From Zootoca vivipara (Eukaryota), in NCBI RefSeq assembly GCF_963506605.1, contig NC_083277.1:58652001-58716000 (forward strand): a stretch of 64,000 bases of DNA. The letters are read 5' to 3'. Below are positions 31,392 to 59,299 of this stretch, piece after piece. Every line of letters begins with the position of its first letter. Position 1 is the stretch's first letter. Below the pieces are notes generated by a model. It was not told where the DNA came from. It searched no databases and saw only the letters and a program-made list of their open reading frames with translations. The position numbers and the translations under genes are program-made.

Positions 31392-32453
31392 ATGAAGCCA
31401 GGCAGCTTTCTCCTCCTCACTCTGATGGTCTTCTTTTTGTACTCAGGTGAGTCATAGTTCATATTGCAAAAGTTCTCTTTCTCGGAGAGGTGTAGGGACC
31501 AAACAATCCATGGACTATTCATGTATTCAAATGAGTGTAGGAAGGCTTCACCTGTGTTGACTAAATCCAGTTAACGTTGGTGTACGCTGGCTTAAAGCTA
31601 ATGGAAGGAGGGGACATTGTTGTCAAACATAGGGACACTAGGGGCAGGGACACACATCACCCAACACACACACACACACACACAAGCCTTTCCCACATTC
31701 TTTTGAACACTGAAACATTTCTGTTCTCAAGATTCCTCCTATATGAAATTATACATGCCAGGAAGAAGCAGAATGAACGTCTTGCTATGTGAGATTTACT
31801 CTATCAAATAAAGATACTCTACACCAGGGCTCTACATTGCAGAATACGCCCACCACTTTTCACACAATAGGAGCCTTTTTGAAAGCTGAGGCTCAAAACA
31901 CTAATGCCCCCTAAAGCTACCACCACCACGCACCCTCCTTTCTTCATGGTCTCCCCGTGGCTCTTGTGATATAAGAAGTGGACCTAGCCATGATTCTAAA
32001 CACACAAAGCACCACAGCTGGGCATGCAAGGGAAATCAACAGAACTGGGTCCCAGTTAGTTATGCACTAAATCAGTATATACAGTTATTTATATTTAGTA
32101 TAGTTAACTGACTTAACCATTTCCCATTGATTTGATTGTCTTCTTATGCATGCTCAGTGACATTTAAAAGAAAGTGCCCTATTGCCAATGCACTTTTAGG
32201 ATAACATAGGATGTAAAAGATACAATGCATCTCACTTTTCAGTTCCTAGAAATAAATGTTATCAAATGGACTATTATTCAACAGATGGATTTGCGAAATA
32301 GTTTTTACATTTTCTGTGTTTTGCATCTAGATGTTGTTGTTAAAGCATCATGGGAAGCGGTAAGTGGGACGTCATTTATTCTTATGATAGAACATGGAAG
32401 TACTATGGAGTTAAGATAAGTGAATTTTTATTTCTTGTGGAATTTTTAAATAT

Positions 32454-32489
<36 letters not shown>

Positions 32490-34420
32490 CGCGCGCGTAT
32501 GTATGTATGTATGTATGTCAATATTTAAAATAGAATTTCAAACACAGGCAACAAAAACACATCTACACAAATATAACATACAAGAGCTGGGTTTTTCCCA
32601 TGATTTCAATTCTCTAGTCCCATCCCTTTTTAAAAAAAAAAAGTTGTTGGTATTATTATTAGTTCCATTTGCTACCCACAATTTCAAAGAAAGTCTCGAT
32701 TTGTGTTCTGTAGTAGCCTAGTGGGGTTATTCTGTTATTACTAGACAGCCCGCCCAACCCTGCAGGCATATTATTTAGCCACTGTCTTATGAATCCAGGC
32801 ACTCACTCTGTTTTTTCCGTAAATAATTATTTTATTTTATTTTTCAAAAACTGCTGTTAAATGTGTCCTGGAGCTGCCCACTCGCAATCTGGCAGGATCA
32901 ATCTGTAGGGACTAACATGTCTGCAATTTGTGTCTTGTGTGAAAAACTTTGTACCTGTTCTAACCCTGCAATATTTTTAACTTTAAAGGTGTCTTGCATG
33001 GAATCCCTGCCACCGACAATCTATAATTTGACAGGTTTAAGTGCCCGCAATGGGGCCTTACCATGTCACCAGATCACATTGCGCAAGTGGTAACTTGGGA
33101 TGTATAGAGAACAACTTTATCACGCAATTCACTGCTTGCCAGGACAATAAATCAGCATTTCCTGTGCTTGAATGTACACCATAATATAACACTGGGTGAA
33201 TTGTCTTTTGCATTCCTCATCTTTGCCTCATTATTAGGCATGTCATAATCAGAAAGGCCTTGCAGTCCAAAAGTTAAGTGGGGAGGACCTTTAAAAGTGT
33301 TGTGTCCTTCGTCTTCAGAAATATTGCAAAAGATATCCAAACCCAATATGCACCATGGAACTCAACAACCACTGCGGTTCTGATGGCAAGACCTATGGCA
33401 ACAAGTGTCAATTCTGCAATGCATATATGTGAGTATATATGTGAGATCATAGAGTTGGAAGGGACCCAGAGAGTGATATAGTCCAAGCTCCTGCAGTGCA
33501 GGAATCTGCCCCCCCCCCAAGATATCTTTATTGGAAGTTTAAAAGTACATGATTATATTTGCACTAAGCATGGTGAGATGTAAATAGAAGAAAGGAAAAG
33601 AAAAAGAGAATCAACACACTTGTAGAACGAAAAGTCAAGGGGGGGACCCCTTTCCTGGGCAGTGCAGGAATCATTGTGCACAATGTGGGGTGCTAACCCA
33701 TGACCCTGAGTTTTGTGTTGCTTATGAGGCCCAAATGAAGATGGTGAGCAGAGCTAATCTGTGGGTAGCCCTGAATTTTTAGATTGAGAGTGTTGGGAGG
33801 GCTATTCACAAGCACCACCCTCCTGACACTCTTGTTGCTAAGAGCGATCCAGGGGGTGGGGCAGGGGAAATATGCCCAAATGGGTTCTATCACCATCCCA
33901 CCAGTCCAGACACAAAGCAAAAGGTAGTAGGGTTGGCCCAGAAGAAAAATAACAAAAAAGCCCCATCAGGGAATTAGGGGATAGTAAGAACATTATTATG
34001 AAGGTAACAAAGGCCTACACTGGGTGTTGCCTTAATGTGGATCTTGGAATTGCTCTAGGTAGAAGTCTGAATATTTACCCCCTAGAGAAGTTTGACACAG
34101 ACGTACAATGGGGGCTGGAGAAGGGGGATCTTCCACAAAGTGGTAGACTGAAAAGGACATTGGTCCCTCTTGCTCAATATTGGCTAGGCTGACAGGAAGC
34201 AGTTTTCCAGGGTCTCAGACAGGATTCTTCCTCAGCCCTTTCCCCAAGACACAGAGCAAAGATGGTCTTAGCTTTCCCATCTATACAGTACTTCTCTTTA
34301 AGGAGTTATAATGAAAGTTGTATCTTATGAATTCTCACCTTTATTTCCTTCTTTTTTCTCATCAGTGAAAGTAAAAGAACGCTGAAACTGAAATACTATG
34401 GAAAATGCAAAAAAAATTAA
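31392..34420 (+). CDS. Single-domain Kazal inhibitor gene A (SPINK-like), 82 aa, P1 Met
   Basis: Exons 31392-31446 (55 nt), 32331-32359 (29 nt), 33319-33428 (110 nt), 34366-34420 give [82 protein letters not shown]. Kazal spacing C-X7-C-X7-C-X10-C-X2-C-X17-C, SPINK1-like 4-exon layout, AATAAA at 34567. Confidence 0.92.
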
Positions 34421-36842
34421 GATGCACAAGATTAAGAAACATCTGCCAAGGAAGTCCCATTTTGATTCAAGCTTCACTCATTGCATCACCACAAAAAAAT
34501 TGTTCTTCTCTTTGCTTATGCTCTGTGAGCCAGTGAATATCTCGCAACATCTTTAATTGATTTATCAATAAATAAGCTCAGCAACATTATCAAACTCTCC
34601 ATACATTTATTTGTGTATTATCTATTATTAAATGTTATATATGATTTGGGCAAGATATCGGTATTGAATTTTGTTACTAATAACACACAATCAGGGAACT
34701 GAGTCAAACAATCAGCGGAATCTTCTCTCTTTGGACTATGACATTACTGACTTCTGGCAATTGATTTCTGCAGATTGAAAAAAAACCCAAAAAAACCACC
34801 TATAGACTGCCAGGTAATTCGTTAGACACTGAGGCTAGAACCCATCCCCCTGCCATGATACATTTCATTTCATTTCTATTGATTTTTAATAGAAGAAAAT
34901 AAAAAACAGAGAAATAAGAGAAAAGGACACAGAAAATTCAGTTGCCATCCTATAAATTGATATGTGCCATTCAAGTGGCTACCCAGCTACATCATTGCGC
35001 CAGCGCAAGAATTAATGTTAAAGCAATGGGATTTCTCTCCTGCTTGCTTTCCCCACCTGGGTGTCCCACTGTGTGTTCCTTCAACCGTTCCTCATAAGGC
35101 TTAGTTCCCAAACTCTTGATCATCTTGGTTATCCTCCTCTGCACACATTCAAGTTCGTCAAAATCTTTTTAAAATTGTGGTGCCCAGAATCAGACACAGT
35201 TTTCCAGGTGTGGTCTCTCCAAGGCAGAAAAGAGTAGTACTATTACTATCTGTACTGGCTTAAGGTCAGTGTTTTCAGACTGGCCACAGGACTACTCCAA
35301 CCTCTAGCTCAGAACCAGTTGCTGGTCCAAGTCAACACCCAAAAAGCTTCCTCAATTGGGCTGTCCCCATCTCATCTTCAACACTTGAGCTTCAACATAG
35401 GTGATCTGCGGGCCCACTAATACCCATCCTGCTCACCAAGGGATGTGAGTTTACAATATGCTGGGACATTTCACATAGCTGAATATCTAAAGAACTTGGC
35501 AGTGGTCACCTACCACAGACTTTTTATTAAGACCAGACTGAATGTGTTGCCTTCCAAAATGCTCCAAGGCATAAGCAACTTCAGTGCAGAAATGGGCACT
35601 GTGTTATCAGGTGCAGATTGCCCAAAGTAGCAGCATCATTGATATAATTTTGATACCATTTATCTTGATACCATCAACCATGGTATCCTCCTGGACCCGC
35701 TCCAGGCAGTGGAGGACCTTGGGGTCTCAAAATTTGGTGCCCTCTGCCTGCCTCTCACCTTCCATTCTATATCATAGTTGCTGTGACACCTGTGGAACAC
35801 CTGCGACTCCCCACCCTGTGCAACTAAACCAGTCACACTCCCCTAAAATCTCCTTTGCCTACATCAGCTAAGCAGCAGTGATGCTGGTGTTGAAAGGGCA
35901 GTTCCATCTCACCACATGTGCTCTTTCTGTCAGCATCTTTTTTCCAAAATTGGCCCAAAGGTACCATGTAAAACAATTCAAAACTTAGAGGGAAATTGGC
36001 CAGAGAACTTCTAGTGGAGAGGCAGTGTTGGTGTGGATTATACATGGGTAGCTTATAAGCAAATGCATAAGGGTTGGAGAGAGATGCTGTGGTGGTTAGG
36101 AAGGAGATGAGGCACCCTTAACCCACCCTGATCCTTTGAGGGGTGGGGGGGCCTGGGCCGAGCACCCATGGGGGCTGGAACTCCTGGAGGCCACCCTATG
36201 CGAGCATGATCGCCATGATCAAGGAGAATAATTGGATTTAAAATCATGAACATGCTTCAAAAGAAGGGGGAGAAGATACTGCCAGGACTTTATCAGCTTC
36301 TGAGTGAGAAGAGAATCGAGGGAGTATTTCATCAAGAGGAAAGAATGATTGGGATGGAACGAAAAGGGAAGTAAACTTTTTATTTTCATACTTTAAGATG
36401 TACTTACAACCTTCCTGGACGGACTGTCTAATTATTTGAGAAAATGAGAAATGGAAACGAACTGTGTGGCATTGGAATTCATATAAATAGAGGATTGTCA
36501 TCTGGTATGATTTTAGAAGTTGCTTTTTAAATTGTTAGAGTAAAAAAAAAACCTCCCAGAATGTTTATTGGAATTGCCTGAAAGCCGCCGGCGAGTGGGA
36601 TTTACGAGCTGTGGCGTATTTGGAATCTGAGAGATAATAGCAGCCTAATTGGAGTCTCGGAGTGCAGAAGGCAGCTAAAAGGCGAGGAAAGCTATAAATC
36701 AGTTACAAGAGATTGTGCATAGTGTGAACTAGCTGTTCCTCGCCAAAAAGCTGTACTCTTGCAAAAGTTTAGAAGAAGTTTGGAAGAAGACGGAATATGA
36801 GCCGAGGCATTCCTATCTTACTACAGGCTCGTATACTATAAG

Positions 36843-37210
36843 GAATGCCTTATGAGGAACAGCTTAGGGAGCTGGGTATGTTTAGCCTGGAGAAGAGAAG
36901 GTTGAGGGGTGATATGATGAGAGGATGCCATATAGAGGAGGGTGAAGGGTTGCTTTCTGCTACTCCAGAGAAGTGGACACAAAGCAATGGATTCAAACTA
37001 CAAGAAAGAAGATTCCACCTAAGCATTAGGAAGAACTTCCTGACTGTGAGAACTGTTTGGCAGTGGAATTTGTCAGCAAGTAATGTGGTGGAGTCTCCTT
37101 CCTTAAAGGTCTCCAAGCAGAGGCTTGACAGCCACGTCAAGAATACTCTGATGGTGTTTCCTGCTTGGCAAGTTGGATTGGATGGCCCCCATGGTGTCCT
37201 CCAACTCCTC
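36843..37210 (+). mobile_element. CR1 3' fragment (inverted paralog at about 50630-50975)
   Basis: [23 protein letters not shown] matches the CR1 ORF2 end at 57959. Confidence 0.85.
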
Positions 37211-38095
37211 TCCTTTCATATTGCCAAAGTCTTTAATATGAGAGTATATTTTGCCTGAATTTGAACTTGATGAAGTGGGGAGAAATAAGATTCAGTTCTT
37301 GCTTAGGACAAACTTAACATACGTGTACACTTTATGAAGATTCTCTGATTCTATGTTATCAGCTCATGTCTGGTATGTCCTGACGGCTTTGTAACTGCTT
37401 ACTTTGTAAGGAATGTTGTCCCTGCAAGGATGAGTATGTAGTGTCCTTGCCCACTGTAGCTGCTCATCCTGTTTGGCAGCTGTTCTTGCGAGGGTAGATA
37501 TGTGATGATCTTATCTATAGCCGAAGGCTATCTACTTCCTTCATTCCCTGCTTTTCTTTTGGACAGCTTCCTAGCTTGTCCAGGGGTAGGGGTTGATATT
37601 CTGCAAGGCAAGGATTCGGGGCCTGTGAGGGACAGGGGATATCGCGAAGTCCCTCCCCTCCTGAGTTCAAGCCCATCCCCGAGCACAGGGGAAAGCAGAG
37701 AGAGTTCCGATTCCAGTGGGGAAGCAGGAAGTCGTGTCCGAGGCTCAGGCAAGGTAGCGGAGCCAGGGTCCCAGGTGGGACAGGAAGGGGCAAATAAGGG
37801 GGGGGAGACCCATCCCCCCAACTCCGGAATTGCGCAGAAAGCGGAGGGGAAAGAGGATGGGTCTACCCAAGCTTTTGTGTTGGAGAAAGACGCGCCAAAA
37901 GCCATTCGGAGGTTCTGAACCCGACTGAGCACATAGCTCCGTGTAAATAGCAATGACTTCAGCACTGTAAATAAGCAGCACCAATAAAAGAATAAAATGC
38001 AGAGCTGTGTAGAGTCGTTACTCTGAAGTAGCCCGCTCCGGCCACTGTGACAGCAACCTCCGAATCTTTTTTGGGGCTACTTTGGAGTTGCCGGG

Positions 38096-39379
38096 ATGAG
38101 TGCGTCAGAGGCGGAGAAATGGCGGCAGATCGCAGAGAAAGCCCAACAGGACCTGCAGCAACTGGCGCTGCAGGCACAGGGGGAATTAAAGGCAGCTAAA
38201 GAAGAAACCAAGAAGGTCCAGGAGGACAGGCTACAACTTGCGGAACAGGTGAGAGCGCTTCAGGAAAAAGAGCAGCAATTAAGGGCGGTGGCGGTAGAGC
38301 TCCAAAACAAGTTGGATGCCGAGAAAAACAAGGCGGGAGGGGCCCCCCAACTCCAAGTGCTGCCAGGAAGGAGAGCGGGGACCCTAGTAAGCAAGTTCAA
38401 TGGAGACCCGAGGGAATATCATGGCTTTGAGACTGAGATCGTGTATGCTCTTGAGCTGCACCATGATGAGTTCCCTGATGATGAGCACAGGGTAGCGTTT
38501 ATTGTGGAACACCTTACAGGGGCAGCCAGGGAGTGGCTAAGACCGTTAATCGCGACAAAAAATCCTTGCATGAAGAATGTCAAACTATTTCTAGAGGCTT
38601 TAAAAACTATGTATGCGTCCGATAGCCATATGGACCAGACCAAGGAGGAACTGCATAATTTAAGGCAAAGAACAATGACAGTTCGCGAATATTGGGCGAG
38701 ATTCACCATGCTAGTGCACAGACTGGGGTGGGAACTGCACTCGCCTCCAATGGAAGCGGCGTTCTACCTGGGGTTGAATGAGGATGTGAAAGATGAGCTC
38801 TCGAGAGGTCCAAAGCCCAGTAATATGGATCAGCTGAGCAAAGCGGCTCTGGCGGTGGGGGTGAGACAGGAATCCCGGTGGAACGACAAGCAAGCAACGT
38901 GCGCAAAGCGGGCTTGGTTCCCACGGTCGCAGGAGAAGCCACTCCCCCAACAACCCTTCCAAGCCACGCCTGGGGCCAGCCAGGACCAGGAACCCATGCA
39001 AATTGATAGCGCGCGCGGGGGGGGGCTTTTCAAACCCCAGCGGCGACAAGACGCAAGGAGGGAAGGGGCGGGAATCGCTTTCTCTGCAACTCCCCCCAGC
39101 ATCTCGTCAGAGACTGCCCACATCGCAGAGAGTGGCAAGGAAAGGCGGGAACAGTTGTGCCCTCCCCCACTGACGCAGCACCACAGCAGGGAAACGGGAA
39201 AGCCTGGTTGCAGGAGACAAGGGGCAGCAGCCAGGCGCAGTCAGCAGACAACAGCCCCAGCCCGCCCACCCGCACAGCGCGGAGCAGAGCCAGCCCACCC
39301 CTCCCAGAGCAGGAGTGGTTCTAGAAGTGACGCTAACGCTCCCAAATGGCTATCCCCTGACGGTCCTCGCCTTAATTGA
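38096..39379 (+). CDS. gag: Gypsy Gag (retrotransposon capsid-like); frameshift at the G9 run 39017-39025 displaces a degenerate zinc knuckle
   Basis: FNGDPREY, LTGAAREW, LRQRTMTVREY, EPMQID. The knuckle (R)FLCNSPQHLVRDC lies in a different frame from 39076. Confidence 0.85.
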   Translation: MSASEAEKWRQIAEKAQQDLQQLALQAQGELKAAKEETKKVQEDRLQLAEQVRALQEKEQQLRAVAVELQNKLDAEKNKAGGAPQLQVLPGRRAGTLVSKFNGDPREYHGFETEIVYALELHHDEFPDDEHRVAFIVEHLTGAAREWLRPLIATKNPCMKNVKLFLEALKTMYASDSHMDQTKEELHNLRQRTMTVREYWARFTMLVHRLGWELHSPPMEAAFYLGLNEDVKDELSRGPKPSNMDQLSKAALAVGVRQESRWNDKQATCAKRAWFPRSQEKPLPQQPFQATPGASQDQEPMQIDSARGGGLFKPQRRQDARREGAGIAFSATPPSISSETAHIAESGKERREQLCPPPLTQHHSRETGKPGCRRQGAAARRSQQTTAPARPPAQRGAEPAHPSQSRSGSRSDANAPKWLSPDGPRLN

Positions 39380-42300
39380 CAGTGGTGCATCAGCCAACTT
39401 CTTCTCGAGAAACTTTGCAGAGGAGCACCAGATCCAGCTTCTGCAGCTGGACTTTCCCCTGCACGTAGCCACCATTGACGGCAGGGAGTTGCTGGGAGGG
39501 GCCATCACTCATCAACCCCCCCCCATGAGAATGACGGTGGGAAGGCACTCAGAGACACTGGCATTCAACGTCACCACCATCTCAGACCCCCCCATCGTCT
39601 TGGGCATGAGCTGGCTGGCGCGCCACGACCCCTCCATCAGTTGGCACCAGAGATGCATCACATTTGGGTCGGACTTTTGTCTGGAACATTGCATGCAGCA
39701 CCAACCAGGGGAGGGGCCTCCAATAGCCACGGTGGCCACCATGCACGTCAAGGGGGGTGAGGCGATACCCAAACCATACTGGGACCTGCAGGAGGTCTTC
39801 AGCGAAGCGGAGTCCGACCACCTACCCCCACACAGGTCTTTTGACTGCCAGATCAACCTGGTGCCAGGGGCAATGATACCCCCAGCCAAGCTGTACGCCA
39901 TGTCAGATCAGGAACTGGAGGATCTGCGTGCGTTTATAGACAAGAACCTCAAACGGGGGTTCATCAGAGAAAGCAAGGCAGCAGGGGGCAGCCCGGTCTT
40001 CTGGGTGGACAAGAAAGACACGCAACAGCGCCGTCTTGTGGTGGATTTTAGACGGCTCAATTCAGTGACAGAGCCAGTGGCTTTCCCCATGCCCAGAGTG
40101 GACGATCTCCTGACAGCGGCACGCAGGGGCAAGATTTTCACCAAGCTAGACCTGAGGGGGGTGTACAACTTGATCAGAATCCGGGAAGGCGATGAGTGGA
40201 AGACCACGATGTTCACGCCTCTGGGCTCTTTTGAATATCTGGTGATGCCCTTCGGGTTGCAAGGGGGCTCAGCATGCTTCCAGGCCTTCATGCACCACGT
40301 CCTGGGGTCCCTCCTCTTCAAGAACTGCTTGGTCTTCCTGGATGACATCCTTATCTATTCCAATGACCCAGTGCAACATGTGAAGGATGTCAGGGAGGTG
40401 TTGCAGCGCCTGAAGGAGAACCACCTGTATGTGAAGCTGGAGAAGTGCAAGTTTCACACCAGGGAAGTAGACTTCCTGGGCTACAAACTGTCAGACAAGG
40501 GGCTGGCGATGGACAAGGACAAGGTGCAGGCCATCCTGGACTGGCACAGCCCCAGGACGCGCAAAGATGCCCAACGCCTCCTAGGCTTCGCCAACTTCTA
40601 CAGGAAATTCATCAAGAACTTCTCACGTGTTACGGCTCCCATCACGGACTGCCTGAGAGGCAAGCAGAAGTTCAGGTGGACCCCAGAGGCGCAAGCAGCG
40701 TTCGAAAGCCTCAAGAGGGTGTTCGCTTCAGACCAAAACCTGTTCCACGTGGTGCAAGATGCGCCCCTACGCGTGGAAACAGACGCTTCAGACAGGGCTT
40801 TGGGAGCGATCCTGTTGCAACTGGACGCCAACAGAGAGTGGAGACCTTGTGCCTTCTTCTCCAGGAAGCTGACCCAGCCGGAGCGCAACTACACGGTGTT
40901 TGATAGGGAACTGCTTGCGATCCACGCTGCTTTCCAGCACTGGCGACACTTCCTGGTGGGCGCCAAGCACCCCATCCAGGTGTGCACAGACCACAAGAAC
41001 CTGGAGTTCTGGAGAACAGCCAGGGTGCTCAACCAGCGGCAGATACGGTGGGCAGAGTTCTTCTCGAACTTCAACTTCTCCATCCACTACATCCCGGGGG
41101 AGCAGAATGTCAGGGCGGATGCCCTCTCCCGCAAACCAGAGTACATGGAGCAGGAGTTGCCACCAGCACCCAGGCACATTTTCCCCCCATCAGCATGGTC
41201 CTGCGGAGCAGCAGTGGTGAGCGAGGCAGAACTCACAGCACTGACAGCAGCTGATGAGTTTGCCACCCGCATCTTCAGAGAACTGAGAGGGGGGAGGGAG
41301 CAGGCAAAAGACTTTGCAGAACGCAGGGGGCTGCTTTTCTACAAGGGGGCACTGTACCTGCCCACCACCCAGCTTAGACGTAAGGTCCTCAAGCAGATGC
41401 ACGACAACCCGACGGCGGGTCATTTTGGAAGGGACAAAACCGCTCACCTAGTCATGAGACACTTCTGGTGGCCAGGGGTGCGGGAAGATGTTAGAGACTA
41501 TGTACGGGGCTGTGACACCTGCCAGCGAGCAAAGGTGGTCAGAGCGCCACCAGCAGGTTTGCTGGAGCCATTAGCCACACCGCACAGGCCGTGGGAAGTA
41601 GTGTCCATGGACTTCATCACAGACCTGCCGTCGTCCAGGGGCAAGACCGCAGTGTTGGTGGTGGTGGACCTTATGTCCAAAATGTGCCACTTTATACCGT
41701 GTGCCAGGGCGGTCTCTGCAGAAGAGACAGCCAAACTGTTTGTTGACCACGTATTCAGACTGCATGGATTACCTTTAAGGGTTATTTCGGATCGTGGCCG
41801 CCAATTTGTTTCCAGGTTCTGGAGGCGGCTCATGAACCTCCTGCAGGTGGAGGTCAGCTTATCGACGGCGAGACACCCGCAGACCAACGGACAGGCGGAG
41901 AGGGTCAACGCCATTCTGCAGCGGTACCTAAGATGCTACGTCAGCCAGAGACAAACGGACTGGGTGGATCGCCTGCCACTGGCGGAATTTGCCTACAATA
42001 ATGCAGTGCACGTCTCCACAGGGGTGTCGCCCTTTAAGGCCAATTATGGGCGCGACCTCAGATCTTTCCCGGAGAGGGAGGGGGAGGAGGAGGAGGAGGG
42101 CCCACTGGCAGAGGATTGGGCAGAGGAACTGGAGACGGTGCACCAGCAGCTCCGAGAACACTTGGAGAGGGCCAAGGAAGCGTACAAGAAGGGGGCAGAT
42201 CACCACAGGCGACAAGGGGAGGTCATCAGGGTGGGGGACAAGGTTTGGTTGTCCTCGGAGGGCCTTCCCATTAGAGGGAGGTGCAAAAAGCTGGCGCCCA

Positions 42301-42740
42301 GACGGCTGGGCCCCTTCAAGGTCACGCAACAGGTCAATCCGGTGGCCTTCAGATTGGCACTACCAGAGGACATGAGGGTGCATCCAGTGTTTCATAGATC
42401 ACTGCTGTCGCCGTACAGGGAAAGCAGCAGGCTCCGAGACAGCGAACAAACCCCCGAGGGAGGGGGGGAGAGGGAAGGCAGGGAGCAACTCAATGAGGCC
42501 ACGGCCATTCTTGATTCACGGAGAGGGGTGGGGGGCCTGGAGTACCTCATGGCATGGGAGGATGCTCCACCGTCACAGAATCAATGGGTCCCAGCCACTC
42601 AGATACGGGAGGAATTCTTGGTGGAAGAATTTCACGCCCTCTTTCCCCACAAACCCAAGCCCTGGCACATGGAAAGGGAGGGGGGAGGGGGAGGAAGTAC
42701 TGGAGAGCAGTTCACCATGGGGATGGGAAGCGGAGTTTGA
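39189..42740 (+). CDS. pol: Gypsy Pol: protease, RT, RNase H, integrase, chromodomain
   Basis: LIDSGA, FLDDILIY, ETDAS, TDHKNL, HHCC finger (HDNPTAGH...CDTC), SMDF/SDRG/QAER DDE triad, HPVFH and chromodomain ILDSR...EYLMAW...NQWVP. The frame is open from the slippery site at 39189. Confidence 0.95.
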   Translation, partial: GKRESLVAGDKGQQPGAVSRQQPQPAHPHSAEQSQPTPPRAGVVLEVTLTLPNGYPLTVLALIDSGASANFFSRNFAEEHQIQLLQLDFPLHVATIDGRELLGGAITHQPPPMRMTVGRHSETLAFNVTTISDPPIVLGMSWLARHDPSISWHQRCITFGSDFCLEHCMQHQPGEGPPIATVATMHVKGGEAIPKPYWDLQEVFSEAESDHLPPHRSFDCQINLVPGAMIPPAKLYAMSDQELEDLRAFIDKNLKRGFIRESKAAGGSPVFWVDKKDTQQRRLVVDFRRLNSVTEPVAFPMPRVDDLLTAARRGKIFTKLDLRGVYNLIRIREGDEWKTTMFTPLGSFEYLVMPFGLQGGSACFQAFMHHVLGSLLFKNCLVFLDDILIYSNDPVQHVKDVREVLQRLKENHLYVKLEKCKFHTREVDFLGYKLSDKGLAMDKDKVQAILDWHSPRTRKDAQRLLGFANFYRKFIKNFSRVTAPITDCLRGKQKFRWTPEAQAAFESLKRVFASDQNLFHVVQDAPLRVETDASDRALGAILLQLDANREWRPCAFFSRKLTQPERNYTVFDRELLAIHAAFQHWRHFLVGAKHPIQVCTDHKNLEFWRTARVLNQRQIRWAEFFSNFNFSIHYIPGEQNVRADALSRKPEYMEQELPPAPRHIFPPSAWSCGAAVVSEAELTALTAADEFATRIFRELRGGREQAKDFAERRGLLFYKGALYLPTTQLRRKVLKQMHDNPTAGHFGRDKTAHLVMRHFWWPGVREDVRDYVRGCDTCQRAKVVRAPPAGLLEPLATPHRPWEVVSMDFITDLPSSRGKTAVLVVVDLMSKMCHFIPCARAVSAEETAKLFVDHVFRLHGLPLRVISDRGRQFVSRFWRRLMNLLQVEVSLSTARHPQTNGQAERVNAILQRYLRCYVSQRQTDWVDRLPLAEFAYNNAVHVSTGVSPFKANYGRDLRSFPEREGEEEEEGPLAEDWAEELETVHQQLREHLERAKEAYKKGADHHRRQGEVIRVGDKVWLSSEGLPIRGRCKKLAPRRLGPFKVTQQVNPVAFRLALPEDMRVHPVFHRSLLSPYRESSRLRDSEQTPEGGGEREGREQLNEATAILDSRRGVGGLEYLMAWEDAPPSQNQWVPATQIREEFLVEEFHALFPHKPKPWHMEREGGGGGSTGEQFTMGMGSGV

Positions 42741-43734
42741 GGAACCAGAGGAAGAAGTATGGGCGTCGCCGAGATCCACCCAGTCAGAGGAAGAAGCAGA
42801 CTGGCAGCACATTTTTACCCCCACCAGCTCTGACGCCACGGACTTTTTGGGATTCCAGTCCTCCCAGGCGGAAGGGGGGGGCTCGCAGGACTGGGGGGAG
42901 GTGTTCACACCAACGGGCTCGGAAAGTACTGAGTTCTTAGGCTTCCAGTCGTCACCGACACCTGGGGGGGGACCTGGGGAGGGGAGAAGGGGAGCTTGGG
43001 AGGGGGGTGGATGTGAGGGACAGGGGATATCGCGAAGTCCCTCCCCTCCTGAGTTCAAGCCCATCCCCGAGCACAGGGGAAAGCAGAGAGAGTTCCGATT
43101 CCAGTGGGGAAGCAGGAAGTCGTGTCCGAGGCTCAGGCAAGGTAGCGGAGCCAGGGTCCCAGGTGGGACAGGAAGGGGCAAATAAGGGGGGAGACCCATC
43201 CCCCCAACTCCGGAATTGCGCAGAAAGCGGAGGGGAAAGAGGATGGGTCTACCCAAGCTTTTGTGTTGGAGAAAGACGCGCCAAAAGCCATTCGGAGGTT
43301 CTGAACCCGACTGAGCACATAGCTCCGTGTAAGTAGCAATGACTTCAGCACTGTAAATAAGCAGCACCAATAAAAGAATAAAATGCAGAGCTGTGTAGAG
43401 TCGTTACTCTGAAGTAGCCCACTCCGGCCACTGTGACAGGGCCTTATGGATTCATTAGCAATACGCTGCATCATATTTTGGCACATTTGCAAGAAGCAGG
43501 GAATACATAAGCAAAGAAGCAATAAGATAATAATAGGTCCTAAGAACATCATTAACAAACCCTTGAGCCATGCCGACCCGGGGAATATGCCATTTAGCCA
43601 TGACATGTCCCATCTGTAGGTGTGACTCCTCAGTTCTGAAGCTTTGCACTATGATGGTTGCATTGTCCTTCTTTTTAAAAGGATCAAGATCTTTCCAAAC
43701 CACTGTGATCTCAATAGAATGAATATTGCTACAA

Positions 43735-45254: not shown

Positions 45255-46328
45255 ATGAAGCCAGGCAGCTTTCTCCTCCTCACTCTGATGGTCTTCTTTT
45301 TGTACTCAGGTGAGTCATATTTCATATTGCAAAAGTTCTCTTTCTCGGAGAGGTGTAGGGACCAAACAATCCATGGACTAGCCATGTCTTCAAATGAGTG
45401 TAGGAAGGCTCCGCCTGTATTGACTAAATCCAGTTAAAATCTCTCTGCAGACCTTGGTGTTTGATGTCTGAAAGTTAAAGGAAGGAGGGGACATTGTTAT
45501 TAAGCATAGGGACACTGGCGGCAGGGACACACATCTCCCCAAAACACACAAACAAACAAACAAACACACACTTGAGCCTTTCCCACATTCTTTTGAACAC
45601 TGAAACATTTCTGTTCTCAAGATTCCTCCTATATGAAATTATACATGCCAGGAAGAAGCAGAATGAATGTCCTGCTATGTGAGATTTACTCTATCAAATA
45701 AAGATACTCTACACCAGGGCTCTACATTGCAGAATACGCCCACCACTTTTCACACAATAGGAGCCTTTTTGAAAGCTGAGGCTCAAAACACTAATGCCCC
45801 CTAAAGCTACCACCACCACGCACCCTCCTTTCTTCATGGTCTCCCCGTGGCTCTTGTGACATAAAAAGTTGACTTAGCCATGATTCTAAACACACAAAGC
45901 ACCACAGTCGGGCATTCAAGGGAAATCAATAGACCTGAGTCCCAGTTAGTTATGGACCAAACCAGTTTATACAGTTATTTATATTTAGTATAGTTAATTG
46001 ACTTAACCATTTTCCATTGATTTGATTGTCTTCCTATGCATGCTCAGTGACATTTAAAGGAAAGTGTCATGTTGCTAAGGCACTTTTAGGATAACATAGG
46101 ATGTAAAAGATACAATGCATCTCACTTTTCAGTTCCTAGAAAGAAATGTTATCAAATGGACTATTGTTCAACATATGAATTTGCGGAATAATTTTTACAT
46201 TTTCTGCGTTTTGCATCTAGATGTTGTTGTTAAAGCAACATGGGAAGCGGTAAGTGGGACATCATTTATTGTTATGATAGAACATGGAAGTAGCATAAGT
46301 GAATTTATATTTCTTATGAAATGTTTAA

Positions 46329-46390
<62 letters not shown>

Positions 46391-48537
46391 TAATATGGAA
46401 TTTAAAACACAGGCAACAAAAACACATCTACACAAATATAACATAAAAAGCTGGATTTTTCCCATGATTTCACATGTCTAGTCCCATTCCTTTTTTAAAA
46501 AGTCAGTGGTATTATTATTAGTTCCAGCTGCTACTCACAATTTGTAAGAAAGTCTCAGCTTTTGGTCTGTAGTAGCCTAATGGGGCTATTCTATTATTAC
46601 TAGACAGATTGCCCAACCTTCCAGGCATATTATTTAGTCACTGTTTTATGAATCCAGGCACTCACTGTGTTTTTTTCATAAATAAAATTTTGTTTCACAG
46701 TGTGAAAAACTTTGTACCTGTTCTAACCCTGCAATATTTTTAACTTTAAAGGTGTCTTGTATGAAATCCCTGCCACCAACCATCTATAATTTGACAGGTT
46801 TAAGACCCCGAAATGGGGCCTTAACCATGTCACCAAATCACATGCCCCAAGTGGGAACTTGGGATGAATAGAGACCAACATTATCACGCAATTCACTGCT
46901 TGCCAGGACAATAAATCAGCATTTCCTGTGCTTGGATGCACGCCTTAATATAACACTTGGTGTATTCCTCATCTGTCCCTCATTATTAGGCATGTCATAA
47001 TCAGAAAGGCCTTGCAGTCCAAAGGTTAAGTGGGGAGGACCTTTAAAAGTGTTGTGTTCTTCGTCTTCAGGAATATTGCAAACATCATCCAAACCCAGCA
47101 TGCATCTTCGAGAAACGTCCCCACTGCGGTTCTGATGGCAATACCTATGGCAACCAGTGTGACTTCTGCAATGCATATTTGTGAGTACATCATAGAATCA
47201 CAGAGTTGGAAGGGACCCCGAGAGTCATGTAGTCCAACCTCGTGCAGTGCAGGAATCTTTTTTCCACCTCAGACATCTTTATTGGAAGTTTAAAAGTACA
47301 TGATTATATTTGCACTAAGCATGGTGAGATGTAAATAGAAGAAAGGAAAAGAAAAAGAGAATCAACCCCCATGTAGATGGAAAAGTCAAGGGTGGGGAAC
47401 CCCTTTCCTGGGCAGTGCAGGAATCATTGTGCACAATGTGGGGTGCTAACCCATGACCCTGAGTTTTGTGTTGCTAATGAGGCCCGAATGAAGATGATGA
47501 ATAGAGCTAATCTGTGGGTAGCCCTGAATTTTAAGATGAAGTGGGTTGGGAGGGCTATTCACATGCACCACCCTCCTGACACTCTTGTTGCTGCTTCTAA
47601 GAGCGATCCAGGGGGGCAGGCAGGGAAAGTATGCCCAAATGGGCTCTATCACCATCCCACCAGGCCAGACTCAAAGCAAAAGGTAGTAGGGTTGGCTCAG
47701 AAGAATAATAATAAAAAGCCCCATCAGGGAATTAGGGGATAGTAAGCACCATGGTCTAAACCACAGAGCCTAAGACTTGCTAATCAGAAGGTTGGCGGTT
47801 TGAATCCCTGCGACAGAGTGAGCTCCCATTGCTCGGTCCCTGCTCCTGCCAACCTAGCAGTTCGAAAGCACGTCAAAGTGCAAGTAGATAAATAGGTACT
47901 GCTGCGGCTGGAAGGTAAACGGCGTTTCCATGCACTGCTCTGGTTCACCAGAAGCAGCTTAGTCATGCTGGCCACATGACCCGGAAGCTGTCTGCGGATA
48001 AACGCCGGCTCCCTCAGCCAGTAAAGAGAGATGAGCACCGCAACCCCAGAGTCCTCCACGACTGGACCTGACGGTCAGGGGTCCCTTTGCCTTTACATTT
48101 AAGAACATTATTATGAAGGTAACAAAGGCCTACACTAGGTGTTGCCTTAATGTGGACCTTGGAATTGCTCTAGGTAGAAGTCTGAATATTTACTCCTAGA
48201 GAAGTTTGACACAGACATACAATGAGGGCTAGAGAAGAGGGATCTTCCACAAAGTGGTAGACTGAAAAGGACATTGGTCCCTCTTGCTCAATATTGGCTA
48301 GGCTGACAGGAAGCAGTTTTCCAGGGTCTCAGACAGGATTCTTCCTCAGCCCTTTCCCCAAGACACAGAGCAAAGATGGTCTTAGCTTTCCCATCTATAC
48401 AGTACTTCTCTTTAAGGAGTTATAATGAAAGTTGTATCTTATGAATTCTCACCTTTATTTCCTTCTTTTTTCTCATCAGTGAAAGTAAAAGAACGCTGAA
48501 ACTGAATTACTATGGAAAATGCATAATGAAAGTTTAA
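45255..48537 (+). CDS. Single-domain Kazal inhibitor gene B (SPINK-like), 83 aa, P1 Phe
   Basis: Exons 45255-45309, 46221-46249, 47071-47180, 48480-48537 give [83 protein letters not shown]. Canonical splice sites; AATAAA at 48687. Confidence 0.92.
47750..48100 (+). mobile_element. Sauria SINE in intron 3 of gene B
   Basis: B-box-like GGTTTGAATCCC, Sauria SINE body and cctttgcctttac tail; absent from gene A at about 33985. Confidence 0.88.
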
Positions 48538-48941
48538 GATGCACAAGACTAAGAAACATCTGCCAAGGAAGTCCCATTTCTAGTCAAGCTTCGCTCATTG
48601 CATCACTACCCAAAAAATTTCATTCTTCTCTTTGCTTATGCTTTGTGAGCCAGTGAATATCTCGCAACATCTTAATTTGGTTTATCAATAAATAAGCTCA
48701 GCAACAGTATCAAACTCTCCATACATTTATTTGTGTAATATCTATTCTTAAAAATATTATACGATTTGGACAATAGATTGGTGTTGAAGTTTGTTACTAA
48801 TAATGCACAATCAGGAAACTGAGTCAAACAATCAGCAGAATCTAATCCCTTTTGACTATGACATTACTGACTTCTGGCCATTGATTTCTGCAGATTAAAA
48901 AAACAAAGAAAATCTGTAGACAGTCAGGTGATTAGTTAGAG

Positions 48942-49479: not shown

Positions 49480-49780
49480 TCCTGTTCTTCAACACTTTCT
49501 TGAGTTCATTATAAATCTTATTCCAGAAGTCATTCACTAGTGGACACGTCCACCACATGTGGTAGAAAGAGCCTACTTCTTTATTACATCTCCAACATTT
49601 GCTATCATGGTTATAATAGATCTTTGCTAATTTTACTGGTGTAAGATACCATCTATACATCATTTTCATTAAGTTTTCTCTTAATAAGTTACACGCAGTA
49701 AACTTAATATTCTCTTTCCATAATTTTTCCCAATCTTCCATCATTATATTATGTCCAACATCTTTTGCCCACAAAATCAT
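49480..49780 (-). mobile_element. L1/Tx1 ORF2 C-terminal zinc-finger fragment
   Basis: YRWYLTPVKL...CWRC...HMWWTCP. Confidence 0.85.
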
Positions 49781-52701: not shown

Positions 52702-55700
52702 ATGAAGCCAGGCAGCTTTCTCCTCCTCACTCTGATGGTCTTCTTTTTGTACTCAGGTGAGTCATATTTCATATTGAAAAAAGTTCTCTTTCTCGGAGAG
52801 GTGTAGGGACCAAACAATCCATGGACTAGTCATGTCTTCAAATGAATGTAGGAAGGCTCCACCTGTATTGACTAAATCCAGTGAGTCCTGCATACCTTGG
52901 TGTTCACTATCTGAAAGCTAAAGGAAGGAGGGGACATTGCGGTCAAACATAGGGACACTGGGGGCAGGGACACACATCCCCCCAAAACACACACACCCCT
53001 GAGCCTTTCCCACATTCTTTTCAATACTGAAACACGTCTGTTCTCAAGGTTCCTCCTATCTGAAATGATACATGTCAGGAAGAACCAGAATGAATGTCTT
53101 GCCTTGTGAGATTCACGATACACCAGGGCTCTTCATTCCAGACAGTGCCCAACACTTTCCACCCAATAGGAGCCTCTTTGTGAGTTGAGGCTTCAAACAT
53201 GAATGCCCCCTAAAGCTACTACCACCACACACCGTGCTTCCTTCACAATCTCCACATGGCTCCTGTAAGATAAATAGTGGACTTGGGAACAATTCTAAAC
53301 ACACACGGCACCACAGCTGGGTATTCCACTGAAATCAAAAGAACTGGTACCCAGTTAGCTAGGAAATGAATCGTTATATTCAGTTATTCCCATTTAACGG
53401 ATTAGACCATTTCTCATTGATTTGATTATCTTCCAATCCATGCCCCATGACATTTAAAGTAAATTGCATATTGCCAAGCCACATTATGGGTGCACTTTCA
53501 GGATAACAAAGGATGTGAATGATACAATGCACCTCACTTTTCAGTTCCTAGAAATAACTGTTCTAATATGAACTGTTATTCAATATATGGATTTTCTTTA
53601 TAACTTTACATTTTCTGTGCTTTGCTTCTAGGTGTTGCTGTTAAAGCATCATGGGAAGCGGTGAGTGCGAAATATTATGATAGTGTTAGGAAAACATTCT
53701 TTAAGAAACAGAGAAAAGTTCCTGGAAGCTTTAAAGAGGGTTCCAGAATTTTGTTTAGTGTGTAGGAGTGGCACTCTAGGCTTGATTGGTGTCAGCTGGA
53801 GGTGCAAATAAAGGGAGGAAGTTGCAGGCTGCAATTTCCGCAGGAGGAAAGCACACACATTGTCAACACGCATGCTGACAACAAGGTTGGAAGTAAGATC
53901 ATGTGTGCTGCTGATACTCTGAGTTTTGCTGTGTCAGGATTGTTAATTACTGGACTGAGATTATACCGTGCTGGAGAGATAAAGAAGGAATGTAAATAGC
54001 TTGTATATAATAGTAGCAGAAATGCTTGTGCGACCAGTCAAGCAATAAAGGAGCTCTTGACTGTGGATTTGAGTATGACTCCTATTCTTGTCCTCTGCCT
54101 CCGGGAAAAACTCTGCTACAAAAAGTGGTTTACTGAAAAACATATATGCATATATATAACAGAAAAGAGCTCCCCCCCCCACACACACTTTCACATTAGT
54201 TCTAGTTCCTTAGTCCTAGCTTGTGTTCTGTAGTAGCCTATTGGGGTTATTTTATTATTATTAGACAGACCACCCTAACCTGGCAGGCATATTATTTAGC
54301 CACAGTCTTATGAAATCAGGAATAATAATATTCTTGAGAACTGGCAGGATTGGACACTCCAGTGGATTTTAAAAGATGTATTTTAAAGCATCTGTTAAAT
54401 GTATTGAGTATGAAACCCCTGGAACTACCCACCTGTAATCTGCAAATTTCGTGTCACAATGTAAAAAAACACTTTGTACCTGCTTTAACCCTGCAGCATT
54501 TTAAAGTTTTAAAACGTCTTGCATGAAACCCCGGCATTGACCATCTGTAAATCAATAGGTTTAATCCTACATATAGGGGTTACAATGTAACCAAATCTCA
54601 TGCCTTGAAGATGAAAATTTTGGCATTTTTATTTGGCAATGCAAGTCTGTGATATTCTGGAGATTCATAAAAATCAGCTCTGGATCAGGTTGTTTGGGGT
54701 CCAAGTCAGCCTGGAACAGAGTGGGCCTGATTTGGATAAATCAGAGCCACAAATTGGATGGGGTAGGGTCCATGCACTACCCCAGTAGAAAGCTGTGGGT
54801 GGCCACAGGGTGCCAGAGTGTTTGGTTCTTCTGGATACAAGGTCCTGCAAATCCCCAAGGCTCCTAAACACTGGACTTTTCTGCTGTGCCTGTGTGGAGC
54901 TGGCACAGTCCAAATGGCAAAAAATAATCCACGTTCCCAACTTTCACCCTGACTGCCAAGATGTAACAGAACGGCTGCAAGGAATCATAAAACCCACTGA
55001 CAAATACCCCTTCCTTTTGGTGCATGTGGGAACCAATGACACTGCAAGCCATAGCTTACAGAAGATCAAAAATGATTATGAGGCTCTGGGCAGGAAGTTG
55101 AAGCAATTAGATGCACAAATTGTCATCTCTTCTGTCCTCCCAGTTGAACGACATGGCCCAGGGAGAGAGGGAAAAATAGGGGAAGTGAACAACTGGCTTC
55201 GCAAATGGTGCAAACAGGAACGGTTTGGATTCCTAGATCACGGTCTGCAGTTTCTTGAAGATGGACTTCTGGCAAGTGATGGACTGCACCTCACAAAAGT
55301 TGGGAGGAATGTTTTTGCCACGAAACTCAAAAACCTCATCAGGAGGGCTTTAAACTGACTTATGTGGGGGAGGGAGACAGTGGTCCTGAAGGTAGGAGTC
55401 TATCAAATGCTGAAGATGATCATCCAAATGTCAAGGACCAAATGGAGCAAGCAGCATGCAGACCTAGTGGTGGGACGAAAATATCCTTAAATAAGAGACA
55501 TGGGGGAATGATCAACGGTCTTCAATGTCTGTATACTAATGCACAGAGCATGGGAAATAAACAAGATGAACTTGAGCTCTTGGTACAGCAAACTAAATAT
55601 GACATAATAGGCATCACTGAAACCTGGTGGGATGAGTCTCATGACTGGAATGTAGTAATAGAGGGATACAATCTATTTAAGAGAAATAGACCAAACAGGA

Positions 55701-58700
55701 AAGGAGGAGGAGTAGCTTTATATGTTAGGGATATGTATACCTGTGAAGAGATCCAGGATTTAAAACTTCAAAGCCAAATTGAGAGTATCTGGGTCAAAAT
55801 TAAGGGAGAGAAAAACAACAGTGATCTCATTGTGGGAGTTTACTATAGATCCCCAAGCCAAACTGAGGACACAGATGATGCCTTCCTGGAACAGATGGCC
55901 AAGCATTCCAAAGGAAGTGAGATAGTAGTAATGGGGGATTTCAACTATCCTGATATTTGTTGGATGTCAAACTCAGCCAAGAGCATAAGGTCGAACAGAT
56001 TCCTCACTGGCCTTGCAGACAACTTTATTGTCCAGAAAGTGGGAGAAGCAACAAGAGGATCAGCCATTTTAGATCTGGTCCTAACCAATAGTGATGACTT
56101 GGTTAGTGGGGTAGAAGTGGCAGGATCATTAGGTGGGAGTGACCATGCTCTTCTGGAGTTTATTATCCAGCGGAAAGGAGCAACCAAGCATACTAAGGTC
56201 CAAATTCTAGACTTTAAGAAAGCCGACTTCGGAAAACTTAGGGAAACGCTGGGTGAAATCCCATGGACAGTAATACTAAAAGGGAAGGGAGTTCATGATG
56301 GTTGGGAGTTTGTTAAAAGGGAGATATTAAAAGCACAACTTCAGGCAATACCAATGAGACGGAAACATGGAAGGTGCCTAAAGAAGCCAGGCTGGCTATC
56401 TAAAGAACTTTTGACTGAGTTAAGATTTAAAAGGGATATGTACAAAAAATGGAAAAGGGGGGAAATCTCCAGAGAGGAATTCAAACATATAGCCAGCACG
56501 TGTAGAGGCAAAGTCAGAAAAGCTAAAGCACAGAATGAACTCAGGCTCGCCAGAGAGGTTAAAAGCAACAAAAAGGGCTTTTATGGGTATGTCCGTAGCA
56601 AAAGGAAAAACAAGGAAACAGTGGGGTCACTCAGAGGAGAAGATGGTGAAACGCAAACAGGGGACAGAGAAAGGGCAGAATTCCTCAATGCCTTCTTTGC
56701 CTCAGTCTTCTCCAAGAAAGAAAACAACGCCCGACCTGAAGAATATGGAGCAGTTGATTCAGCAGGGGAAACACAGCCCAGAATAAGTAAGGAGGTAGTA
56801 CAAGAATACTTGGCTAGTTTAGATGTATTCAAGTCTCCAGGGCCAGATGAACTACATCCAAGAGTATTAAAAGAACTGGCAGAGGTGATTTCAGAACCAC
56901 TGGCAATAATCTTTGAAAATTCCTGGAGAACAGGTGAAGTTCCAGCAGACTGGAGGAGGGCAAATGTTGTCCCTATTTTCAAAAAGGGGGAAAGAGAGGA
57001 CCCAAACAATTACCGCCCAGTCAGCCTGACATCAATACCAGGAAAGATTCTAGAGCAGATCATTAAGCAAACAGTCTGTGAGCACCTAGAAAGAAACTCT
57101 GTGATCACTAAAAGTCAGCATGGGTTCCTGAAAAATAAGTCATGTCAGACTAATCTGATCTCATTTTTTGACAGAATTACAAGCCTGGTAGATGAAGGGA
57201 ACGCTGTGGATGTAGCCTATCTTGATTTCAGCAAGGCCTTTGACAAGGTGCCCCATGATATTCTTGTAAAGAAGCTGGTAAAATGTGGGCTAGACAATGC
57301 TACCATTCAGTGGATTTGTAACTGGCTTACTCACCGAACCCAAAGGGTGCTCATCAATGGCTCCTCCTCATCCTGGAGAGTAGTGACTAGTGGGGTGCCA
57401 CAGGGTTCTGTCTTGGGCCCAGTCTTGTTCAACATCTTTATCAATGACTTGGATGATGGGCTTGAGGGCATCCTGAGCAAGTTTGCAGATGACACCAAAT
57501 TGGGAGGGGTGGCTAACACCCCAGAGGACAGGATCACACTTCAGAATGACCTTAACAGATTAGACAACTGGGCCAAAGCAAACAAGATGAATTTTAACAA
57601 GGAGAAATGTAAAGTACTACACTTGGGCAAAAAAAATGAAAGGCACAAATACAGGATGGGAGACACCTGGCTTGAGAGCAGTACATGTGAAAAGGATCTA
57701 GGAGTCTTGGTAGACCACAAACTTGACATGAGTCAGCAGTGTGATGCAGCAGCTAAAAAAGCCAATGCAATTCTGGGCTGCATCAATAGGAGTATAGCAT
57801 CTAGATCAAGGGAAGTAATAGTACCACTGTATTCTGCTCTGATCAGACCTCACCTGGAGTACTGTGTCCAGTTCTGGGCACCACAGTTCAAGAAGGATAC
57901 TGACAAGCTGGAACGTGTCCAGAAGAGGGCAACCAAAATGGTCAAAGGCCTGGAAACGATGCCTTATGAGGAACGGCTTAGGGAGCTGGGTATGTTTAGC
58001 CTGGAGAAGAGAAGGTTAAGGGGTGATATGATAACCATGTTCAAATATATAAAAGGATGTCATATAGAGGAGGGAGAAAGGTTGTTTTCTGCTGCTCCAG
58101 AGAAGCGGACACGGAGCAATGGATTCAAACTACAAGAAAGAAAATTCCACCTAAACATTAGGAAGAACTTCCTGACAGTAAGAGCTGTTCGGCAGTGGAA
58201 TTTGCTGCCAAGGAGTGTGGTGGAGTCTCCTTCTTTGGAGGTCTTTAAGCAGAGGCTTGACAGCCATCTGTCAGGAATGCTTTGATGGTGTTTCCTGCTT
58301 GGCAGGGGGTTGGACTGGATGGCCCTTGTGGTCTCTTCCAACTCTATGATTCTATGATTCTATGATTCTAACTCAGTTTGAATATGGAACACTGCTTGGC
58401 AGGATGATAAACCAGCTTTTCCTGTGCTTGAATGCACATCTTAAATTAACACTTGATGTATTCGTCATCTGTGCCTCATTATTAGGCAAGTCATAAACAG
58501 GAAGGCCTTGCAGTCCAGAGGTTAAGGGGGGAAGAGCCCTTAATAAGTGCTGTGTCCTTTTTCTTCAGAAATATTGCCAAGGGTATCCAAAAGTCCAATG
58601 CACTGAGGAGTACCGTGCACACTGTGGTTCTGATGGCAAGACCTATAGCAACCGGTGTCACTTCTGCAATGAATATATGTGAGTATATCATAGAACCATA

Positions 58701-59299
58701 GAATTGTAGAGTCGGAAGGGACCACAAGGATCATCTAGTTCAAACCCCTGCAATGCAAGATATATATTTTTTGCACAATGTGGGTTATGTGTTGCCTATG
58801 AGGCCCAAATCAACATGGTGAGCAGACCTAATCTGCAGACCGTCTTAAATTTTAAACTCAACTGGGTTCACAAGCACCACCCTCCTGACAGTATTGTTGT
58901 TGCTGCTGCTGCTAAGTGGAATCCTGTGAGAGGAGAGGGCAGGGGAAAGATGCCCAAATCGGTTCTATGTTCTATGACACAGATCAACAATGAAGGGTGC
59001 AGAAGACGGATCTTCCACCAAGTGGTGGAGCTGAAAAGAACACTGGTCCATCTTGTTCAATATTGTCTAGGCAGATGGCAGAAGCTCTCCAGGGACTCAG
59101 ACATTATTCTTCCATAACCCTTTCCCTCCCCAAGACTTGGGGCAATGATGAACTTAGTGTTCCCACCTATTTATCTTTAAGAGTTATAATGAAACTTGCG
59201 TGTTATGAATTCTCATATTTATTTACTTCTTTTTTTCTCATCAGAAAAAATAAAAGAAAGCTGATACTAATGTACTATGGAAAATGCAGAAACGTTTAA
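52702..59299 (+). CDS. Single-domain Kazal inhibitor gene C (SPINK-like), 82 aa, P1 Glu; intron 2 holds a CR1 LINE
   Basis: Exons 52702-52756, 53632-53660, 58569-58678, 59245-59299 give [88 protein letters not shown] at 59453. Confidence 0.9.
54956..58370 (+). mobile_element. CR1 LINE, 5'-truncated within ORF1, in intron 2 of gene C
   Basis: ORF1 esterase (SGNH-like VHVGTND, DGLH) ending at 55358, intact ORF2 and (ATTCTATG)n tail. Confidence 0.95.
55364..58285 (+). CDS. CR1 ORF2: APE endonuclease plus reverse transcriptase (uninterrupted)
   Basis: YTNAQS, ITETWW, GDFN, LDLV and SDH endonuclease motifs; [10 protein letters not shown] and FADD RT motifs. The true start may be the ATG near 55508. 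Confidence 0.95.

Follow-up and report, generated by a model that had tools for sequence, protein, structure and literature searches.

How can neighbouring copies of one gene share an identical first coding exon, and stretches of intron without a single difference, while the exon that carries their reactive site sets them apart? The question is raised by three genes, here called A, B and C, on the + strand of a 64,000-nucleotide (nt) stretch of the genome of the lizard Zootoca vivipara (RefSeq assembly GCF_963506605.1, contig NC_083277.1, positions 58,652,001 to 58,716,000); this whole stretch is referred to as the window, and all coordinates are counted from its first letter. Each gene is predicted from its sequence to encode a secreted serine-protease inhibitor of the Kazal type. 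The explanation that we favour, with a probability of roughly 0.7, is that selection keeps the exon-3 reactive loops different, each for its own protease, while gene conversion evens out the introns and outer exons. A preliminary description of the same DNA had read the locus as a lizard-specific repertoire of three inhibitors under positive selection, and its claims are taken up where the results bear on them.

Divergence of exon 3 between the paralogues

A six-frame motif search located the reactive loops on the + strand at 33346 (A), 47098 (B) and 58596 (C); they belong to three intact neighbouring four-exon single-Kazal genes with GT-AG introns and open frames throughout. The gene models are listed here together with the tracts of the alignments discussed below.

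31392-34420, + strand: gene A, gene model, 82 residues
31341..31560, + strand: tract around exon 1, evened out among A, B and C (Fisher P 4e-4 and 1e-6)
31392..31446, + strand: gene A coding exon 1, predicted signal peptide, the same in A, B and C (gene model)
31783..31969 (B ~45673-45859), + strand: 187-nt A/B tract of zero differences in intron 1, likely gene conversion (A/B intron alignment)
32331..32359, + strand: gene A exon 2, 29 nt (gene model; joint 32358>33318 in runs X15 and X19)
33319..33428, + strand: gene A exon 3, Kazal core with the reactive loop (gene model; spliced on both sides)
33319..33369, + strand: A/B divergence peak, 19 of 51 nt different, with ~4% intron divergence just upstream
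34125..34365 (B ~48239-48479), + strand: 241-nt A/B tract of zero differences, in the last part of intron 3 and on into exon 4, likely gene conversion (A/B intron alignment)
34366..34420, + strand: gene A exon 4, coding part to the stop (gene model; poly(A) added at 34586-34589)
45255-48537, + strand: gene B, gene model, 83 residues
45255..45309, + strand: gene B coding exon 1 (gene model)
46221..46249, + strand: gene B exon 2 (gene model; joint 46248>47070 in 43 reads of run X21)
47071..47180, + strand: gene B exon 3, with a loop fixed across lacertids (gene model; RNA; cross-species comparison)
48480..48537, + strand: gene B exon 4, coding part to the stop (gene model; RNA 3' ends at 48706-48707)
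52702-59299, + strand: gene C, gene model, 82 residues
52702..52756, + strand: gene C coding exon 1 (gene model)
53632..53660, + strand: gene C exon 2 (gene model)
58569..58678, + strand: gene C exon 3 (gene model)
59245..59299, + strand: gene C exon 4, coding part to the stop (gene model)

Alignment to turkey ovomucoid assigns the P1 residue as Met in A (codon 33355-33357), Phe in B (47107-47109) and Glu in C (58605-58607). At 43933 and 51448, six residues match the loop of a paralogue; there is no exon context, and the matches were dismissed as chance.

Coding exon 1 is identical in all three pairs (0/55 nt), and exon 3 differs at 24, 27 and 28 of its 110 nt. The recounted A/B comparison, the pair with 24 differences, agrees with the preliminary description: the differences touch 14 codons and change the encoded residue in 13, and 14 of the 24 lie within the 24 nt that encode positions P4–P4', the three loop motifs standing where they had been placed. 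Nineteen are found in the first 51 nt of the exon, next to upstream intron bins with 4/78 and 4/100 differences, and the five in its 3' half all change a residue. The cleaned A/B introns differ in 154 of 2384 columns (6.5%), significantly less than exon 3 (Fisher P 3e-7), with 20 mismatches in their worst 110 columns.

Long intron stretches of A and B had been called nearly identical, which is accurate for patches and not for the introns as a whole, since these are 93.5% alike. The patches themselves are far from random: the identical runs span 241 and 187 columns, the longest run in shuffled alignments averages 83, and none of 20,000 permutations reached either length. Informative sites join A with C upstream of exon 1, are alike in all three genes around exon 1 and join A with B in intron 1. 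The part of the intron that follows exon 1 shows 7, 7 and 4 differences in 114 columns across the pairs, and divergence from C reaches ~19–21% farther into intron 1. These patterns suggest that gene conversion is likely to have evened out the introns and the outer exons. The identity of exon 1 is explained by gene conversion plus a conserved signal peptide; its reading as a mark of special constraint was rejected in view of the three-way evened-out tract, the conservation of the signal peptide and the low number of synonymous sites (~12.7, with a chance of zero changes of 0.43 for A/B and 0.09 for A/C).

A fast exon 3 and a slow remainder thus both hold. The contrast between them, which had been taken as a sign of an arms race, is nevertheless inflated by gene conversion, and an exon that diverges faster than its introns gives on its own no ground for such a reading. 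Selection is still needed because the divergence peak is confined to 51 coding bases. The preliminary description had itself allowed that exon 3 might merely follow a conversion boundary that takes in the flanking intron; conversion is present at the locus, and the intron beside the peak has diverged by ~4%.

Two mobile elements lie within the introns of these genes. A CR1-type long interspersed nuclear element with a 1001-codon open frame (55280-58350) makes up most of the 4.9 kb of C intron 2 and may hinder conversion with A and B, and a high-copy short interspersed repeat (47750-48100) occupies part of B intron 3 and is absent from A.

Reads from four of the 23 listed sequencing runs were aligned to 31200-48800, a region that covers A and B, with C outside it. 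In run X21, 43 raw reads skip intron 2 of gene B and 21 skip its intron 3; both are also spliced out in contigs of X19 and X15. The same two introns of gene A are missing from contigs of these two runs, and 2 reads of X21 skip its intron 3 as well. RNA joins A exon 3 to A exon 4 and B exon 3 to B exon 4, with a read orientation consistent with + strand RNA. A and B are therefore spliced and carried in RNA. Their balance varies between runs, as a rough estimate from contig depth, which is a poor measure of it, and the run records carry no tissue label. An independent DNA run, X6, covers the region of A exon 3 (33289-33658) with 0 differences, and A exon 3 is thus not an assembly error. Compared with the window, other runs show two allelic differences in gene B, a silent one in exon 3 at 47163 (44/44 reads in X21) and a Tyr/Phe difference in exon 4 at 48512 that matches an older RefSeq record, P0035.

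Loop conservation in lacertids and the competing explanations

The comparison across species drew on 20 lacertid proteins, with each gene of a species represented by a single model; eleven isoforms, duplicates, older versions and one fragment (P0009, P0016, P0021, P0025, P0026, P0029, P0030, P0032, P0034, P0035 and P0037) were left out, and P0055 and P0065 are likewise outside the set. The comparison includes two further Zootoca RefSeq paralogues outside the window, D (P0024, P1 Lys) and E (P0040, P1 Leu), so that the repertoire is larger than the three genes first described. Enzyme contacts were scored at P6–P3', P14' and P18', which we take to be the contact set of the ovomucoid literature; the linear loop alone gives the same picture.

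Between Zootoca, Lacerta agilis, Podarcis muralis and P. raffonei, B-type exon 3 differs at 0–5 of 37 residues, against 11–16 from A-type, and the P6–P4' loop of B shows 0 differences. Its contact columns are variable in 0/10 cases compared with 12/35 of the other columns (P 0.04), and its core motif occurs in 9 of 134 proteins, all of them lacertid B-type, from five species once P. lilfordi is added. Five residues (positions 34, 40, 41, 43 and 65) are fixed in 4/4 B-type sequences and absent from the 16/16 others; three of them are P2, P1 and P2'. Gene C differs from its Podarcis counterpart at 1/37 exon-3 residues and is variable at 1/10 contact columns, and the corresponding counts for D and E are 3 and 2 of 10. 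A-type copies, in contrast, are variable at 8/10 contact columns and 13/35 non-contact columns (P 0.03), and between Zootoca A and its nearest Podarcis copy 6 residues of exon 3 are changed, of which 3 occupy contact positions and another is P4'. The expectation of hypervariable contact residues is therefore borne out among A-type copies only; among orthologues of B and C these residues do not vary in this way.

The flanking exons group differently. Over the 14 residues of exon 4, a single change separates Zootoca B from Zootoca A, compared with 3–6 between it and the B proteins of other species. In approximately unbiased (AU) tests of the 20 proteins, exon 3 rejects species clades (p 9e-5) and exons 1+2+4 reject a B clade (p 0.025), both at the protein level.

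These results are consistent with a history in which single-domain Kazal genes would have been duplicated in tandem, and the B loop would have switched to Ile-Phe-Glu-Lys (P2 Ile, P1 Phe, P2' Lys) before Lacerta, Podarcis and Zootoca split, probably under positive selection. Conversion would have continued to even out the introns and outer exons, conversion events that covered the loop would have been removed by selection, and the contact residues of A-type copies would still be evolving, as is reported for the third domains of avian ovomucoids. Selection on the loop is then likely to be mostly old and conserving, and the fixed loops of B and C point to stable target proteases in reptiles.

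A number of points weigh against this explanation. For A/B exon 3, the ratio of nonsynonymous to synonymous divergence (dN/dS) is 0.288/0.143 = 2.0 with P 0.20, by pairwise counting of low power; no pair or subset within exon 3 is significantly above 1, and A/C is below 1. Selection on the loop is the best explanation of the differences; an excess of dN/dS over 1, as the original claim of positive selection would have it, is not significant. Synonymous differences (3/23 sites) cannot separate an old exon from a young one, and enrichment at contact positions reaches P <0.05 in 3/10 Zootoca paralogue pairs, uncorrected. A literature search gave no source for the contact set, and the A-type group mixes orthologues with within-species paralogues. 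The flank AU test is marginal at p 0.025, being based on 42 columns and on automated RefSeq models; among these, Podarcis 'isoforms' that share an exon 3 carry different exons 1-2 and are possibly chimeric. Orthology was judged from sequence alone, and the burst of change on the B stem is inferred from the five B-only residues.

An ongoing arms race, in which all three loops would evolve fast under continuing positive selection by microbial or parasite proteases, draws on the 13 replacements among the 14 changed A/B codons, on the variability of A-type copies just described and on nine different P1 residues among 27 parsed loops of squamate homologues. It is unlikely given that the four species compared have one and the same B loop and C is one residue from its Podarcis counterpart, that the differences between the Zootoca B alleles P0031 and P0035 all lie outside the loop, as do the B read variants among those listed, and that dN/dS is not significant. 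The last point, as well as the clear conversion tracts and the similar number of exon-3 differences in all pairs, would equally suit an account without positive selection, with exon 3 being old, having drifted under relaxed constraint and having then become too different for conversion. We regard this account as improbable, since the adjoining introns are ~4% diverged and the peak is just 51 nt long, since ~0.5 synonymous differences stand against 10.5 replacement differences between A and B outside the contact codons, and since the altered loop of B has been strictly conserved, unlike a sequence under relaxed constraint.

The remaining concern is technical, namely that collapsed reads account for the identical tracts and chimeric gene models for the pattern across species. 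Assembly of tandem copies this alike is difficult, and the Podarcis RefSeq isoforms do mix exons 1-2. An artefact of this kind is nonetheless very improbable, as DNA run X6 has the A exon 3 region unchanged, RNA links exon 3 to its own exon 4 in both A and B, and the conservation of B exon 3 is independent of how the exons are joined. Selection for distinct loops against a background of gene conversion is retained as our explanation, and would make the locus a compact vertebrate case of selection shielding ~50 bases from gene conversion.

Protein family, predicted targets and surrounding genes

The three gene models match Zootoca vivipara RefSeq proteins letter for letter (A, P0006, XP_034961675.1; B, P0031, XP_034961673.2; C, P0002, XP_060126949.1), which are named ovomucoid or ovomucoid-like. 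Pfam Kazal_1 scores are 58 bits for C at full length, 47 for C exon 3 and 35 for B exon 3, against a curated cut-off of 21, and the record for gene A is annotated with PF00050. Six cysteines in Kazal spacing (C31, C39, C47, C58, C61 and C79) are invariant in 25/25 sequences, with the P3 cysteine preceding the reactive site as in classical Kazal domains. The N-terminus is hydrophobic and conserved, and is predicted to be a signal peptide that is nearly unchanged in several snake homologues. Both by sequence and by the fold of an AlphaFold model of B (mean predicted local distance difference test score 84), the closest solved relatives are ovomucoid third domains, with a root mean square deviation (rmsd) of 1.7–2.0 Å and 57–61% identity over 49 columns; the best structural match is the silver pheasant domain (rmsd 2.0 Å, 49 columns). 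The model draws residues 37–41 as helix and does not confirm the loop geometry.

The identification of A, B and C as ovomucoid proper was rejected, as each has one domain compared with the three tandem Kazal domains of ovomucoid; by analogy, the genes would work like an ovomucoid third domain, yet are not ovomucoid. A profile search retained 110 proteins among 2514 candidates, led by lacertids and followed by snakes, iguanians, geckos, an amphisbaenian and a cordylid, then by SPINK6-like proteins and double-headed inhibitors from birds, mammals and others. Judged by these matches the family is squamate-wide, and the description of the repertoire as lizard-specific is not upheld, given the homologues in snakes, iguanians, geckos and an amphisbaenian. 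The nearest named non-squamate relatives with a single domain are SPINK6-like; the P1 residues here are Met, Phe and Glu.

Kazal inhibitors act by the standard lock-and-key mechanism, and their target preference follows established P1 rules. By these rules chymotrypsin-like enzymes would be the preferred targets of B (P1 Phe); A (P1 Met) would favour enzymes resembling elastase, chymotrypsin or subtilisin, and C (P1 Glu) those that are subtilisin-like or Glu-specific. The energetics of Kazal binding are unusually well mapped, through structures of ovomucoid P1 variants, and specificity is therefore predictable and can be tested with domains of ~50 residues. The rigid loop binds the protease active site, and P1 accounts for about half of the hydrogen bonds, according to the part of PMC3082530 consulted. 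Residues P3–P3' of C equal those of an engineered Glu18 ovomucoid variant (1sge), and its loop motif is also present in four proteins of snakes (colubrids and a python, three genera in all). The reported inhibition of a Glu-specific Streptomyces protease by ovomucoid Glu18 was not confirmed in the available part of PMC5508998.

A possible, still tentative, extension is a lacertid panel working at two speeds within one converting cluster, in which fixed slots (B Phe, C Glu, D Lys and E Leu) would each be locked to a stable target, the A slot would duplicate and rewrite its contact residues, and the P1-Glu loop would serve vertebrates as a natural defence against microbial subtilisin-like or Glu-specific proteases. 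As to the site of action, for which skin, gland or egg secretions had been proposed, the terms 'ovomucoid', 'Kazal', 'SPINK' and 'ovoinhibitor' are absent from the one supplement seen of a Lacerta agilis femoral-gland proteome (PMC9000839), and 'ovomucoid' and 'Kazal' from the main text of a marine-iguana paper on the femoral gland (PMC8143647); both negatives are weak, as they depend on naming.

Further Kazal genes, remnants and mobile sequence were found elsewhere in the window.

~200-5362, minus strand: ~93% identical duplicate of the three-Kazal gene at 12680-20175, with the first domain absent; its intact 139-residue model is P0077, named SPINK6-like
6750-6990, plus strand: 73–80% like the 3' untranslated region (UTR) of A, B and C; it has a poly(A) signal, lacks an intact coding exon and, from this similarity, is likely to be what remains of a copy since lost
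12680-20175, minus strand: intact gene of eight exons with GT-AG introns, encoding 198 residues and three Kazal domains, the true ovomucoid architecture
37624-43439, between A and B: Gypsy-like retrotransposon with 430-bp long terminal repeats 99% identical, a 5-bp target duplication and long frames resembling gag and pol; the family is high-copy and the insertion young
43615-45260, upstream of B: mosaic of a part 92% like the block upstream of C and a following 268 nt with 87% similarity to sequence downstream of C
~62080-62040, minus strand: candidate last exon of a further Kazal gene, and a 3' UTR similar to that of A, B and C
62770-62880, minus strand: further Kazal exon 3 with P1 Leu, scoring 48 bits against Pfam

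The proximal promoter of B differs from those of A and C, and B may be regulated differently. The last domain of the duplicate at ~200-5362 differs from that of its parent by 6 nt in 4 codons, all replacing, with three at P4, P1 and P2', and its other domain by one silent change; this is a smaller echo of the loop divergence in A, B and C.

Relation to known systems

Hypervariability of ovomucoid contact residues, divergence peaks under gene conversion and the RefSeq annotation of these genes are already known. Literature searches, with subscription journals outside their coverage, found no study of this cluster ('ovomucoid' with 'Zootoca vivipara' returned 0). The avian ovomucoid third domains (OMTKY3, OMSVP3) are said, after Laskowski et al. 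1987, to be hypervariable at their contact residues. They have the same fold and cysteine spacing as the lizard domains, and their differences are likewise concentrated at the residues that contact the enzyme, but the lizard domains are separate single-domain genes in tandem. Variation in the lizards lies mostly between paralogues, and the loops of B to E are conserved from species to species; in birds the orthologues themselves vary across species.

SPINK6 and its kin in mammals and birds are likewise ~80 residues long, with a signal peptide and one classical Kazal domain. Outside the ovomucoids, the structure of SPINK6 (2n52) matches best, and in the profile search SPINK6/ISK6 proteins come after the squamate ones, at 38–43% identity near full length; SPINK6 has P1 Arg, in contrast to the several squamate copies with varied P1. 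For gene C, domain 2 of horseshoe-crab CrSPI-1, which inhibits bacterial subtilisin with an inhibition constant (Ki) of 2.5 nM, has the same five residues at P3–P2', including P1 Glu (PMC3082530, in the part available). CrSPI-1 is a non-classical two-domain invertebrate Kazal protein and the match is to the loop only, which says nothing direct about the target of C; the likeness is at most a lead towards an antimicrobial function.

The closest parallel in evolutionary pattern is exon 5 of the human red/green opsins, which has a divergence peak under gene conversion (Teshima and Innan 2008, reviewed in PMC3924837). In that system, as far as the accessible part of the review describes it, introns are alike within species, one exon groups by paralogue across species and the peak lies at functional residues. 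The lizard cluster likewise has conversion tracts in the flanks and, at the protein level, an exon 3 that groups by paralogue and flanks that do not. It departs from the opsins in that the protected site is a protease-binding loop of ~50 nt, that at least 3 genes are involved and that one class of copies is still changing.

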